NCBI GenBank assembly: GCA_030949705.1
Contig: JAUZSF010000026.1
Location: forward strand, 53,210-117,209
Direction of reading: 5' to 3'
Length of the DNA stretch: 64,000 nt
Source of the DNA: Robiginitomaculum sp.
GTDB taxonomy: Bacteria; Pseudomonadota; Alphaproteobacteria; Caulobacterales; Maricaulaceae
Positions 32,458 through 35,951 of this stretch are shown piece by piece. The notes beneath the pieces were generated by a model, which did not search any database, had not been told where the DNA came from, and saw nothing but the letters and a program-made list of their open reading frames with translations. The stretch's first letter is position 1, and each line of letters starts with the position of its first letter. The translations under genes were made by a program, and so were the position numbers.

Positions 32458-32802
32458 AGCCAACGAACTCCCCGCAAATGATATGATTGTATGGCCCTGT
32501 TGCCCGCCGGGTATAAATTTCTTTTATCCCCGCTTTTTGGAAGGGGTCATGAGGGATAAAAAGGGATAAAGGAGGGACGTTTCAGGGTCCGTTTTTTCGC
32601 ATTCAGGGATAATTTAGGGGCAAGGGCAGGGACACCCAGGGGTAGCTCTTACCCCTCATTGACCCTCAAGCGTGTTATGCGGGGGATTTCTCCCTCTCCT
32701 TGGGGGAGAGGAAAGAGCTTGTTTCCATGCCGGTACGATGCTTTTGGGGCGGGGATAGCAAAACCTTGTCCCACAGGGGCGCTGGTGGGGTATAGTGCCA
32801 CC

Positions 32803-32932: not shown

Positions 32933-33370
32933 TCAACGAAAGGCACCCAACGCGTCCTGAACGGCATCCACCACGGCCTCAAAGGGCAAAAGCGCCGATT
33001 GATGGCGTTGCGGATAATCCTTGACCGCCGCCAGGGCACCAAGGCCAGCAAAGCGCCCCTTGGGCGGTGGCGCACCCTCTTTGACCATAGCGCGAAAACC
33101 ATCGCGGGCAGCAGTTAGCTCATCCAGATCGGCACCAATGACGTTTTGGCCCAAAATGGCCGAGGCCGCCTGGCCCAATGCACAGGCCTTCACTTCTTGG
33201 GCAAAATCATAAACGCGGCCCTGATCGTCCAGTTTGACCTGAACACTGACCTTGGAACCGCACAGCCGGGCTGATTTTTCGGCAGATCCATCCGGATTGT
33301 CCAGCGTCCCCAGATGGGGAATGCCCGCGGCCAGGGTCAAAATGGCGGTGTTATAAAGATCGTGATCCAT
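32933..33370 (-). CDS. NifU/IscU/SufU-like iron-sulfur cluster assembly scaffold protein
   Basis: MDHDLYNTAILTLAAGIPHLG...LCGSKVSVQVKLD...VKACALGQAASAIL... is a U-type scaffold pattern with conserved Cys residues. Start at ATG 33370. Confidence 0.75.
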   Translation of the reverse strand: MDHDLYNTAILTLAAGIPHLGTLDNPDGSAEKSARLCGSKVSVQVKLDDQGRVYDFAQEVKACALGQAASAILGQNVIGADLDELTAARDGFRAMVKEGAPPPKGRFAGLGALAAVKDYPQRHQSALLPFEAVVDAVQDALGAFR

Positions 33371-33388
33371 TAGGGAATTGGCTTTCAA

Positions 33389-33395
33389 AATACAC
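33389..33395. repeat. Left copy of the 7-bp direct repeat AATACAC flanking the low-GC islet
   Basis: Read directly from the sequence. An identical heptamer occurs at 34212-34218. Confidence 0.8.
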
Positions 33396-33408
33396 TATAG
33401 ATTCTACT

Positions 33409-33425
33409 AGATATGTGGCATATCT
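33409..33425 (+). promoter_or_regulatory. Perfect 7-bp inverted repeat AGATATG-TGG-CATATCT, 5 nt upstream of the islet gene start (candidate operator)
   Basis: Read directly from the sequence. It lies between two TATAGATT(C/G)TAC direct repeats (33396 and 33434). Confidence 0.35.
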
Positions 33426-33430
33426 AAAAT

Positions 33431-34213
33431 ATGTATAGATTGTACGTAGATGAAGTGGGAAACGATGACCTTTCTCACGTAGATGATGATCGCCACCGCT
33501 ACCTTAGTTTGACTGGTGTTGCGATGAAAATTGATCATGCAAGAGATCAACTGAATGTAAAGTTGAACTCACTTAAAGCCAATGTTTTTGCGCATGATCC
33601 TGATAGCCCGCTGATTTTACACAGGAAAGAAATATTACACCGTAAAGGTGTTTATCAATGCCTCAATGAGGTTGAAAAGTTGTCAGTTTTTAACGAGGCA
33701 ATTTTAGATATATTTTGCAACACAGAATATGTGGTAATAACTGCGTTAATAGATAAAGCATGGATGCGAGAGCAAGCGCATTGGGAGCAAAAGCATCCAT
33801 ATCATTATTTAATGGAAATATTAGTTGAGAAATACGCTCAATTTCTTGAAAGAAGAAATGCAATTGGGGATATTATGCCCGAGAGCCGCCAAACTAAAAA
33901 GGATAAATTGCTTCAAAAGGTGTATGAGTTAACCAGAGAGAATGGATCTGATTTTGTTAATGCGCGTAGGATGCAATCCGTGTTGCGGTCTTCAAATTTA
34001 AAATTCCGTACTAAGAAAGATAATATTGCGGGATTGCAATTATGCGACCTTATTGCACATCCAAGTCATATTTATGTACGTCATATAATGGAACATGGTG
34101 TTAATCTGGGAGCGTTTGCTGAACAAGTAATAAATATTCTTAATCGAGATAAATATGATCGGTCGCCTACACGCGGGGAAATTATAGGATATGGGATAAA
34201 ACACCTACCCTAA
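33431..34213 (+). CDS. DUF3800-family protein (uncharacterised)
   Basis: 260-aa ORF in AT-rich DNA. The N-terminal MYRLYVDEVGN (DExG) and C-terminal NIAGLQLCDLIAHP match the two motifs I remember for Pfam DUF3800 (DESG ... LQxADxxA). No Shine-Dalgarno sequence is visible. Confidence 0.7.
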   Translation: MYRLYVDEVGNDDLSHVDDDRHRYLSLTGVAMKIDHARDQLNVKLNSLKANVFAHDPDSPLILHRKEILHRKGVYQCLNEVEKLSVFNEAILDIFCNTEYVVITALIDKAWMREQAHWEQKHPYHYLMEILVEKYAQFLERRNAIGDIMPESRQTKKDKLLQKVYELTRENGSDFVNARRMQSVLRSSNLKFRTKKDNIAGLQLCDLIAHPSHIYVRHIMEHGVNLGAFAEQVINILNRDKYDRSPTRGEIIGYGIKHLP

Positions 34214-34218
34214 TACAC
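34212..34218. repeat. Right copy of the 7-bp direct repeat AATACAC flanking the low-GC islet
   Basis: Read directly from the sequence. It overlaps the TAA stop of the DUF3800 gene. Confidence 0.8.
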
Positions 34219-34243
34219 AAAAGGCGGCACTCGCGCACCGCCC
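34215..34243 (-). terminator. Intrinsic terminator of cysS (hairpin plus U-tract on the minus strand)
   Basis: The minus strand reads GGCGGTG-CGCGAG-TGCCGCC followed by TTTTGTGTATT. There are 5 G:C pairs plus 2 G:U. It lies about 100 nt downstream of the cysS stop. Confidence 0.6.
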
Positions 34244-34346
34244 GATGGATTATGTACCATCTGAATACCAACCGCCGTAGCATTGGGTTATGTAAAATGT
34301 AGTCCATAGAAATGGCTTTGTCAATATTCACACTGCAAACCCGGCG

Positions 34347-35735
34347 CTAGTTTCGGCGCCAGATGCTGTGCCCGTCCTTGTCTTCTATGACGATATTCAT
34401 TTCGGAAAGAACATCGCGAATACGATCCGCTTCGCCCCAATCCTTGTCTTTTCGCGCCTGCACCCGGGCGGCGACCAGCTTGTCGATGGCCTCCGCATCC
34501 AGATCCTTGTCGCCAAGGCCCTTATCGCTTTTGAACCAGACCTCTGGCTCGACCTCAAAAAGACCCAGCAATGCCCCGGCGGCCAGCATTTCACCTTTGA
34601 GCTGTGCTTTTTCACTTTCTTTTTCGGCCTTGTTGGCCAAGGTGGAAAGCGTGGACAGTTTGGCCAGCGCCTGCGGCGTGTTCAGATCGTCGTGCAAAGC
34701 CGCCATAAAACTGGCCGGTGCCGGTACCTTGGCGGCTTTGACATCGCCAAGGCGGCGCAAGGTGCCATAGTAGCGGTCCAGCGTGGTTTTGGCCTGCTCC
34801 AGCAAACTGCCGGTCCAATCCAGCGGCGCCCGATAATGGGCCGAGAGCAGCGCAAAGCGCAGCACTTCGCCGTGCCAGTCTTTCAATAGCTCATGAATGA
34901 GTTTCACATTGCCGAGGCTTTTGGACATTTTCTCACTGTCCATGTCCAAAAAGCCATTATGCAGCCAATAATTCGCCAACCGTTTGCCATCATGAGAACA
35001 CATGGATTGCGCCCGCTCATTCTCATGGTGCGGGAAAATCAGGTCCTGGCCACCGGCGTGAATATCGATGCGGGTGCCCAGCACCGCCTCGATCATCGCC
35101 GAACATTCCAGATGCCAGCCCGGGCGGCCGCGCCCCCAGGGGCTTTTCCAGCCCGGATCATTGTCGTCCGCCGGTTTCCACAACACAAAGTCCGCCGGGT
35201 TGCGTTTATAGGCGGCCACTTCGACCCGCGCCCCGGCGATCATGTCTTTTAATCTACGCCGCGACAGCGCGCCATAACTGTCAAAGCTGGTCACATCAAA
35301 CAGCACATGACCCTCTGCCTCATAGGCATTACCGGCCTCGATCAGGCGCTGTACCAGCGCGATCATTTCTTTCATATGGCCGGTGGCGGTAGGCTCGAAA
35401 TCAGGTTTCAAAACATTCAGCGCCGCCGTGTCTTCACGGTAAATGCGGGTAAACTTGTCGGTGATGACATCAATGGTCACGCCCTCAGCCTTGGCGGCGG
35501 CGTTAATCTTGTCATCCACATCGGTAATGTTGCGGGCATAAACCACGTGGTCCTTGCCATATTCAGCACGCAGCAAACGATACAGCACATCATAGACCAC
35601 CGCCGGGCGGGCATTGCCGATATGGGCATAAGAATACACCGTCGGCCCACACAGATACATGGTCACGCGCGTTTTGTCGGCGGGATGGAATTCGCGTTTC
35701 TGGCGCGAATATGTATCGTAAAGTTGAATGGTCAT
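34347..35735 (-). CDS. cysS: Cysteine--tRNA ligase
   Basis: MYLCGPTVYSYAHIGNARP (HIGH), WHLECS, KMSKSLGN (KMSKS). Start at ATG 35735 (MTIQLYDTYSRQKREF) inside ORF 34347..35825. Confidence 0.95.
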   Translation of the reverse strand: MTIQLYDTYSRQKREFHPADKTRVTMYLCGPTVYSYAHIGNARPAVVYDVLYRLLRAEYGKDHVVYARNITDVDDKINAAAKAEGVTIDVITDKFTRIYREDTAALNVLKPDFEPTATGHMKEMIALVQRLIEAGNAYEAEGHVLFDVTSFDSYGALSRRRLKDMIAGARVEVAAYKRNPADFVLWKPADDNDPGWKSPWGRGRPGWHLECSAMIEAVLGTRIDIHAGGQDLIFPHHENERAQSMCSHDGKRLANYWLHNGFLDMDSEKMSKSLGNVKLIHELLKDWHGEVLRFALLSAHYRAPLDWTGSLLEQAKTTLDRYYGTLRRLGDVKAAKVPAPASFMAALHDDLNTPQALAKLSTLSTLANKAEKESEKAQLKGEMLAAGALLGLFEVEPEVWFKSDKGLGDKDLDAEAIDKLVAARVQARKDKDWGEADRIRDVLSEMNIVIEDKDGHSIWRRN

Positions 35736-35951
35736 GACCTTGGTATTCTCAATTTTGTATCTGGAACTGGCTTCAATACGCATTTGCACCAATTGTGCAA
35801 TGGGGGTGTACAGGATTGCCTTCACGACGTGTTCACGAAACCCTGAAATTTATTGGGGTTGAAGGTACACAAATTCAGCCCTAACTTGAAAGGGTCAAAC
35901 ATGACTTCACAGGGTGGGCGTTAAGCCCGGATGAACCGGCTCGACCCCCTC

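Follow-up and report, generated by a model that had tools for sequence, protein, structure and literature searches.

We analysed 64,000 nucleotides (nt) of a Robiginitomaculum sp. genome (GenBank assembly GCA_030949705.1, contig JAUZSF010000026.1, positions 53,210 to 117,209 of the forward strand), hereafter the window, in which an islet of low GC content lies between cysS and a gene for an iron-sulfur (Fe-S) scaffold protein. The islet is very probably made up of a gene for a protein of the DUF3800 family and a second, convergent gene for a small structured RNA (Table 1). A preliminary description, drawn from the letters of the DNA, had presented a lone DUF3800-like gene; the gene is not alone, because a conserved small RNA gene belongs to the same insert. 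We lean towards regarding the two as a toxin-antidote or abortive-infection-type module, a two-gene cassette that couples an RNase H-like DUF3800 protein with a convergent structured RNA of ~75 nt.

The open reading frame (ORF) of 260 amino acids (aa) reported in the preliminary description exists, and its proposed assignment to DUF3800 holds. The protein matches Pfam PF12686 with 43.3 bits against a cut-off of 21 (expectation value (E) = 7.6e-11, profile positions 2-145 of 149), and DUF3800 is the only domain found in the Pfam scan. Both motifs by which the family is defined, an N-terminal D-E and a C-terminal QxxD (PMC7736814), are present. In an alignment of 39 sequences (A1), D7 and E8 are invariant, as is D206 in Q203-L-C-D206, where Q203 is kept in at least 90% of the sequences; D108, E133, D147, E151, H210 and H213 are the other invariant residues of the subfamily. 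The protein is therefore a DUF3800 member in every feature tested.

The AlphaFold2 (AF2) model of the protein (predicted local distance difference test (pLDDT) 90.4, predicted template modelling score (pTM) 0.89) was compared with known structures by Foldseek. The top PDB match was RNase HII (1eke; E = 5.8e-4, probability 1.0, template modelling (TM) score 0.41-0.47), followed by weak matches to RNase HI. In a viral structure library, a phage DUF3800 protein came first (TM 0.80-0.86) and RNase H proteins next. Judged by its model, the protein has the nuclease-like, more precisely RNase H-like, fold that had been surmised, and published work likewise assigns an RNase H-like fold to DUF3800. As in 1eke, acidic residues (D7 and E8 in the window protein) begin strand 1, whereas sequence identity is 9% and the window protein carries extra helical insertions; a catalytic rearrangement has been published for the DUF3800 family. 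A sequence search of the PDB with the window protein found no solved relative, PHROGs and NCBIfam gave nothing significant, and the only match in PADLOC-DB 2.0, to Cas12b (E = 0.012, 12 bits), is noise.

The search for relatives returned 950 homologous proteins, mostly of 260 aa and 55-70% identical, from alphaproteobacterial and some gammaproteobacterial genomes and from metagenomes; about 70 loci encoding them were retrieved for comparison (hereafter homologue loci, numbered with an L). The DUF3800 gene is under purifying selection, with a ratio of nonsynonymous to synonymous substitution rates (dN/dS) of 0.08 between the window and contig L018. Many copies that stand alone have a -10-like hexamer 5-7 nt ahead of the DUF3800 ATG and no Shine-Dalgarno sequence (33415-33430 in the window, where none was seen in 33371-33430), and therefore the DUF3800 mRNA may be leaderless.

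The DNA directly after the DUF3800 stop codon is better conserved in the homologue loci than the protein, and a conserved element lies 3' of the stop codon in every locus with downstream sequence. A covariance model (R1) gave 56 matches of 34-90 bits and 4 more in isolate genomes, 60 loci altogether, with one match per DUF3800 locus, always antisense and directly 3' of the gene. Its only match in the window (34212-34296, minus strand) scores 81.8 bits (E = 1.8e-20). No convincing match was found in 17 loci without DUF3800 or in L084, an insertion sequence (IS) without the cassette. Near distant DUF3800 genes (<30% identity; on plasmids and in one phage) R1 finds nothing either, so the small RNA is specific to this DUF3800 subfamily.

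On the strand opposite the gene, the order across the homologue loci is a -35/-10 promoter, a short leader, AAUCC, hairpin P1, a linker of 3-5 nt, hairpin P2, a terminator and a uridine (U) tract. P1 has 7 bp, an invariant bulged G and a tetraloop of UUCG, UACG or GNRA; P2 reads GAUGG-UACAUnAAU-CCAUC; and the terminator stem is GC-rich and variable in sequence, with a U-tract that stops at the DUF3800 stop codon. The RNA ends in ...UUUUGUGU in most homologue loci. On the plus strand, no U-tract follows the terminator hairpin. In the window, the putative promoter TTGACA-17-TACATT is the strongest promoter-like site of the region (10 of 12 matches), and the minimum free energy fold of the RNA returns the three hairpins (-29.8 kcal/mol, z = -2.3). 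Across loci, a -35 TTGAC keeps this register in ~30 of 40, and the promoter score reaches at least 8 of 12 in 33 of the 40.

The fold is borne out by covariation. RNAalifold gave the same three helices, with double-sided compensatory changes in 11 of the 20 pairs. In the alignment, 96.7% of the cells were paired against 87.0% in shuffles, and 74 cells carried double-sided changes against 16; none of 500 shuffles reached any of the observed measures, and all slid registers collapsed. Frequent G-U pairs fix the RNA strand. P2 is invariant in the covariation alignment, and compensatory variants of it (GACGG/CCGTC and CATGG/CCATG) were found elsewhere. The P2 loop and the bulged G are invariant though the proteins share just 40-70% identity.

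Among the homologue loci there is no intact DUF3800 gene without the RNA. The only two that lack it, L060 (436-1179) and L065 (135-713), are both wrecks of an L058-type gene: in L060 the N-terminal MRYRLFLDEVGNDD, including the catalytic D-E, is gone and just the terminator hairpin survives of the RNA, and the gene of L065 is truncated at both ends. Five loci show the reverse, with a damaged gene and an intact RNA of 72-84 bits; these are four metagenomic loci with frameshifted genes (L051, L056, L066 and L070) and Phenylobacterium hankyongense (L088, 7001-7858), in which the frameshift is C-terminal. The damaged genes may be real pseudogenes or assembly errors. We rejected this asymmetry of decay (five damaged genes with intact RNA, no intact gene without RNA) as a test of which component is the toxin; it is the chance expectation and uninformative, because the gene is a nine-fold larger mutational target than the RNA.

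Rfam 15 gave no match to the window RNA with a 156-nt query at E up to 10, nor any DUF3800-* match in the related loci scanned. A scan of the distant DUF3800 loci, intended as a positive control, likewise returned no DUF3800-* match and so carries no weight either way. Rfam 15 includes at least DUF3800-I and -IX, and to our knowledge all eleven DUF3800 RNA motifs are in Rfam.

In many homologue loci the pair travels within a mobile element. Neighbouring ORFs were clustered for 37 homologue loci. A transposase of the IS1595 family (Zn_ribbon_IS1595 and DDE_Tnp_IS1595 domains) is present in 20, convergent with DUF3800 and 125-250 nt past its stop codon. An ORF of ~50 aa (...QLDKFKEAARELE.DDDE..F...) that belongs to no Pfam family likewise occurs in 20 of the 37, reading away from the DUF3800 gene from directly beside its start; in IS copies (L020 5839-6001, L027 4850-5002 and others) the two start codons abut or overlap (CATG). 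Overall, the pair sits between the transposase and the 50-aa ORF in more than 20 loci, in the order inverted repeat, small ORF, DUF3800, RNA, transposase, inverted repeat, with the RNA ~50 nt past the transposase stop codon and on the same strand. Seven complete elements of 2.17-3.18 kb have both inverted repeats (22-25 nt, consensus GGCGATTATATACTTGACAAAC), and all seven are flanked by a perfect 8-bp direct repeat of the target. Judged by ISfinder end sequences, the elements may belong to an ISNwi1-like subgroup. The same layout was found in Erythrobacter and Henriciella isolates and in the closest non-congeneric homologue (70% identical).

An IS of the same lineage on a Pseudosulfitobacter plasmid (L084; 1,869 bp, transposase 71% identical, same inverted repeats) carries the small ORF and neither DUF3800 nor the RNA, so the protein-RNA pair is, as far as gene order tells, a discrete cassette set between the transposase and the small ORF that are native to a transporter IS (tIS). 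In the place that the cassette takes in other copies, the spacer between transposase and small ORF in L084 (3967-4180) contains two long palindromes (...aatgtagtatgtcgagccatagtcgacatactacat... and ...gtgtgtcgagctatggtcgacacac...). Conversely, the bare cassette is found in ~40% of loci, among them the window, L022, a Parasphingorhabdus isolate and L092, and the protein-RNA pair is the constant core across loci. Transporter IS are known solely for the IS1595 and IS66 families. The homologue loci resemble IS1595 transporter IS in their transposase, 22-25-nt inverted repeats, 8-bp duplications and internal passenger genes; in contrast, the window copy is bare cargo without transposase, inverted repeats or duplication. 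In the literature on PF12686, on IS1595 with passenger genes and on ISNwi1, we found no description of DUF3800 plus RNA as cargo, nor of this RNA.

Several loci depart from this picture or add to it. In L019 (4109-6783), the DUF3800 start follows the end of a P63C-domain gene by 10 nt, and an IS1595 transposase lies upstream of the latter in the same orientation, unlike the usual composite. The Erythrobacter composite of L086 (1860-5141) adjoins portal and large-terminase genes of a prophage or gene transfer agent cluster. Genes for a TIR-domain protein, a DUF2726 protein, a serine recombinase and ParB come after the solo cassette of L092 (553-3457; protein 67% identical), which makes this the only neighbourhood encountered with the look of a defence or mobile-element setting. 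In L048 (5960-6033, plus strand), an L2-Alphaproteobacteria ribosomal protein leader (61.5 bits, above the gathering score) lies ~1.2 kb from the IS and has no bearing on the cassette. The P2 loop and 3' arm (GUACAUAAUCC, window 34244-34261) match the IS inverted repeat at its outer end (GTATATAATCG, e.g. L036 6909-6930) in 9 of 11 positions, a similarity without significance in view of how many alignments are possible.

To place the cassette among known systems, we compared it with those in which DUF3800 proteins or RNA-nuclease pairs have been described. Eleven RNA structures beside DUF3800 genes, unrelated to one another and several of them with terminators, are known from Weinberg et al. 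2017 (PMC5737381), who gave no functional hypothesis. The window RNA is like these DUF3800-I to -XI motifs (Rfam RF02969, RF02968 and others) in that a structured non-coding RNA (ncRNA) with an intrinsic terminator adjoins a DUF3800 gene, is not a 5' untranslated region (UTR) element and carries the UAA trinucleotide noted by those authors; separate DUF3800 clades having separate RNAs is a further likeness. It differs in that no Rfam model matches it, a distinction drawn via the Rfam models only, and in a fold of its own, with the P1 tetraloop and bulged G, the UACAUnAAU loop of P2 and the terminator. By its sequence, the RNA is another instance of the DUF3800-linked RNA phenomenon, outside the curated Rfam models.

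A second comparison concerns type III toxin-antitoxin systems (ToxIN, CptIN, TenpIN), which share with the proposed module a small RNA in 1:1 association with a nuclease, mobile DNA and a strong RNA promoter. There the RNA forms a tandem array that lies 5' of the toxin gene and shares its strand, whereas here a single copy lies downstream and is convergent, and no tandem repeats of the kind seen in type III antitoxins were found in 33300-34420; the modelled protein, moreover, has an RNase H-like and not a ToxN-like fold. Type VII retrons (Mestre et al. 2020, PMC7736814) also join a DUF3800 effector, with an N-terminal D-E, to a non-coding nucleic acid. Unlike them, the window gene has no adjoining or fused reverse transcriptase, the RNA is not msr/msd, and the protein retains the Q of QxxD that the retron-linked clade lacks. 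CRISPR-associated DUF3800 proteins (TPR-DUF3800 with Cas12a2/a3, Csx32 with Cas13) share the RNase H fold and RNA-centred defence contexts, while the window locus is without TPR domain, cas genes and CRISPR array. On the defining features tested, which are absent here, the module falls outside type III toxin-antitoxin systems, retrons and CRISPR accessory sets.

Any function proposed for the cassette has to explain the strict 1:1 linkage of gene and RNA, the separate strong RNA promoter, the fixed loop and bulge nucleotides amid covarying stems, the purifying selection on the gene and the retention of the pair after loss of the IS. In the toxin-antidote or abortive-infection-type module towards which we lean, protein and RNA would be an obligate pair, with the nuclease recognising the RNA in trans. 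Recognition in trans is favoured over antisense action alone because the P2 loop and the bulged G stay invariant over such divergent proteins. The abundant RNA would restrain the DUF3800 nuclease or be processed by it, and the carrier element would thereby be stabilised. We suggest tentatively, by analogy with type III toxin-antitoxin systems, that the protein is the toxin and the RNA its restraint. DUF3800 is the effector of type VII retrons (PMC7736814) and an accessory nuclease of Cas12a2/a3 and Cas13 systems.

Several observations weigh against this interpretation. In a transposon insertion sequencing (Tn-seq) study of Legionella, a strain-specific, distantly related DUF3800 gene came out as essential, in company with antitoxins, which would fit the protein as antidote rather than toxin. 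The single-copy, convergent RNA sits poorly with the known type III arrangement, and PADLOC has no match, with most homologue neighbourhoods consisting of housekeeping genes. At the window copy, neither inverted repeat nor duplication is present to indicate an insertion mechanism. Finally, a cassette with a protein only 67% identical occupies the same site in L022, a lineage whose scaffold protein is 70% identical. A role in defence, abortive infection or addiction is a reasonable guess.

The opposite polarity, a small RNA that is harmful or regulated and a DUF3800 nuclease that acts as antidote by degrading or processing it, in the manner of a type V system with an RNA target, is improbable. 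It would draw on the Legionella result, on a near-consensus promoter and strong terminator that suit an abundant, stable RNA, and on a fold that suits an RNA-processing enzyme. The four metagenomic loci with frameshifted genes beside an intact RNA should be harmful under such an arrangement, unless they are assembly errors; DUF3800 is effector and not antidote in type VII retrons; and the Legionella protein is distant, its Tn-seq result being one that could stem from polarity.

Equally improbable is an RNA without a protein partner, acting solely in cis as an antisense transcript or terminator that limits DUF3800 or, in IS copies, as the 3' UTR of the transposase mRNA. With the RNA terminator directly against the DUF3800 stop codon and no U-tract behind the hairpin on the plus strand, DUF3800 transcripts would enter the RNA gene and be fully complementary to the RNA; the position of the RNA shortly past the transposase stop codon, on its strand, would likewise fit. 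Antisense pairing demands no set sequence, yet the loop nucleotides and the bulged G are invariant and the stems covary, and the promoter is conserved in solo copies without a transposase. A pairing of the P2 loop with the start codon of the mRNA failed the covariation test: the candidate pairing of UACAU with the mRNA start AUGUA was rejected, since at 4-6 nt it is within background and shows no covariation in L033, L041 and L086.

It is very unlikely that the pair serves the transposon itself, as an RNA-cofactored nuclease for retention, homing or regulation of IS1595 comparable to TnpB/IscB with their omega RNAs. The position of the cassette between both native IS genes in more than 20 loci and an RNase H-like fold common to RuvC-type nucleases would be in keeping with such a role, and RNA motifs beside IS genes (HEARO, IS605-orfB) are among the Rfam families; these two motifs were subsequently recognised as guide RNAs. 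Since the IS and the cassette each occur without the other, and solo copies persist under purifying selection with no transposase, a role in transposition is unlikely. A guide function was discarded as unlikely, as the predicted 5' leader of 4-6 nt and the lack of any variable single-stranded stretch beyond ~8 nt leave no room for a guide.

The boundaries of the insert in the window were established from empty sites. The preliminary description had reported a GC drop, which is real, and its three hand counts (36/60, 21/60 and 19/60) are exact: GC content falls from 0.55-0.62 in the flanks to 0.35-0.39 between ~33350 and ~34250, the sole dip below 45% in 300-nt windows across the 64-kb window. 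A scan of one-genome-per-species contigs with the scaffold protein retrieved five congeneric Robiginitomaculum loci from metagenome-assembled genomes (L001-L005; 74-93% DNA identity), all of which lack the insert, so the cassette is foreign to this genome, as had been supposed. Each of the five has 19 nt between the cysS stop codon and the scaffold-gene ATG (...TGGCGCCGCCAATAA-TTGCGCCTATATCTTGGTG-ATGGATCAC...). Homology of the window to these loci stops at ~34353-34354, within the last cysS codons, and restarts at the ATG at 33370, which sets the insert at 33371-34353, in place of ~26 bp, and not at 33389-34218 as first described. The last cysS codon and stop read CAA-TAA (Q) in the relatives and AAC-TAG (N) in the window. 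A GGCGCC...GGCGCC hairpin lies at the right junction, and the empty sites carry it with a different loop.

No sign of a mobile element was found at the insert itself, in agreement with the preliminary description, which had seen no integrase, transposase, tRNA or inverted repeat beside the gene. Searches at 3 and 6 mismatches detected no inverted-repeat-like sequence in the window, junction alignments no target-site duplication at the true junctions, tblastn no IS1595 transposase in the 64 kb, and ARAGORN no tRNA-like features; the small ORF of the IS is not present anywhere in the window. A candidate IS-end remnant at 34310-34340 was rejected: its likeness is confined to the -35-like core TTGACAAA, and the mismatch-tolerant searches were empty. 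Phage or plasmid origin was rejected, and the proposed enrichment of the family on prophages and islands does not extend to this subfamily: IMG/VR has 2 matches in 2.9 million viral contigs, the DUF3800 relatives in phage and plasmid collections are all below 30% identity, and neighbours are mostly housekeeping genes.

The cassette occupies the same cysS/scaffold junction in two further contigs, L018 (protein 96% identical) and L022. Host and cassette relationships disagree: the scaffold protein of the window shares 93% identity with its counterpart in L001, an empty locus, and only 85% with that in L018. Between window and L018, DNA identity is 81% across the scaffold gene, rises to 94% within the insert and is 92.5% over the final 200 nt of cysS, with a step at ~33330-33370. 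Because the L018 cassette at the same site is 94% identical while the scaffold gene is only 81%, the cassette has probably been exchanged between Robiginitomaculum lineages by homologous recombination via the cysS and scaffold flanks. The founding copy would have been an IS-borne cassette or the product of some illegitimate event, and recombination through cysS and the scaffold gene would have followed. How the gene arrived had been left unexplained; for the family the route is in part accounted for, as IS1595 cargo with inverted repeats and 8-bp duplications, while the window copy looks recombination-borne.

The L022 copy would fit either an old insertion with losses or a site preference. As regards origin only, we consider it unlikely that the cassette is an old resident of the junction, inherited vertically and lost several times. 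The shared junction of L022, where DUF3800 identity (67%) is near that of the scaffold protein (70%), would be expected for an old resident, and the missing inverted repeats and duplication suit great age. The contrast between cassette and scaffold gene in the L018 comparison argues otherwise, as do the empty site of the closest relative, L001, the conservation of the empty spacer across L001-L004 and the GC content of 37.5% in a 57% genome, which indicates little amelioration.

The original model of a lone gene at 33389-34218, bounded by an AATACAC target duplication and set between the scaffold gene and the cysS terminator, is almost certainly wrong. The heptamer is present at both positions (33389-33395 and 34212-34218) and the GC drop roughly coincides with them, but it is neither an insert boundary nor a target duplication: ~10% of shuffles of both 60-nt edges share at least one 7-mer, and the right copy lies in the conserved 3' tail of the small RNA, inside the insert and not at an edge. 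The model implies an empty allele in which a single AATACAC leads directly into AAAAGGCGGC...; the reconstructed site TTCAAAATACACAAAAGGCGGC was found in no relative, and the observed empty site of the related genomes is the 19-nt spacer. The hairpin at 34222-34243, taken for the cysS terminator, is absent from the five empty sites together with 130 nt past it (junctions at 33370/33371 and ~34353), and is instead the terminator of the small RNA of the insert, part of a conserved RNA gene.

The DUF3800 RNase H-fold family recurs beside ncRNAs, retrons and CRISPR effectors, and its eleven linked RNA motifs date from 2017. The unit in the window looks minimal: a protein of 260 aa and an RNA of ~75 nt, each with a promoter of its own (that of DUF3800 being predicted), in less than 1 kb. 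As it has no other mobile genes, is under purifying selection and is matched by empty sites in sister genomes, its function is directly testable with and without the RNA. The link to IS1595 provides a concrete example of tIS cargo and a possible reason why the element is retained. More speculatively, and on balance doubtfully, the pair may represent a new two-component protein-RNA class, in which an RNA-controlled or RNA-cofactored RNase H-like nuclease would work as a toxin-antidote or abortive-infection system and serve as addictive tIS cargo that outlives the IS as a bare cassette. In that case, the other eleven RNA motifs, like the DUF3800 accessory proteins of retrons and of Cas12a2, Cas12a3 and Cas13 systems, would probably follow the same logic.

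Table 1 Features of the DUF3800 cassette and its flanks (window coordinates)
Feature	Position	Strand	Basis and remarks
Inserted segment	33371..34353	.	983 bp, 38.5% GC; ~26 bp of ancestral cysS/scaffold-gene junction replaced
Left end of insert	33371..33430	.	AT-rich 60 nt; part alignable with the equivalent L022 stretch
DUF3800 gene, 260 aa, predicted RNase H-like nuclease	33431..34213	+	Pfam PF12686
Small RNA gene, ~75 nt, ends approximate	~34289-34214	-	covariance model R1; convergent on DUF3800 gene
Hairpin P1	34286-34268	-	7 bp and bulged G, UACG tetraloop
Hairpin P2	34261-34244	-	GAUGG-UACAUAAU-CCAUC
Terminator stem	34243-34222	-	intrinsic-terminator scan; U-tract next, abutting DUF3800 stop codon
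Putative sigma-70-type promoter of small RNA	34296..34324	-	TTGACA 34324-34319, 17-nt spacer, TACATT 34301-34296
Right junction of insert	34325..34353	.	new last cysS codon and stop (junction alignments)
NifU_N/SufU-like Fe-S scaffold gene	32933..33370	-	Pfam NifU_N, E = 1.2e-9
cysS, cysteinyl-tRNA synthetase (maximal ORF)	34347..35825	-	Pfam tRNA-synt_1e, E = 4e-119; also DALR_2, CysS_C

The insert also bears on its flanking genes. The scaffold protein scores under the cut-off of TIGR01994 (SufU), and its gene starts at the ATG at 33370 and not at the TTG at 33388, a start kept in L001-L005, L018 and L022. Because the stop-to-start gap is 19 nt, cysS and the scaffold gene are probably co-transcribed in the relatives, and the insertion probably splits this operon. 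The insert puts the small-RNA terminator between the two genes, and therefore the scaffold gene of the window probably relies now on a promoter within the AT-rich stretch with which the insert begins on the left. Promoter-like sites on the minus strand occur there at 33428-33401 (TTTAGA-16-TAGAAT) and 33421-33394, and 33371-33430 probably holds both the DUF3800 promoter and this replacement promoter. Downstream of the scaffold gene, an ORF-poor stretch of ~470 nt includes a weak whalefall-1-like Rfam match (32690-32756, plus strand; 18 bits against a gathering score of 37, E = 0.24) with the hairpin CUCUCCUUGGGGGAGAG.

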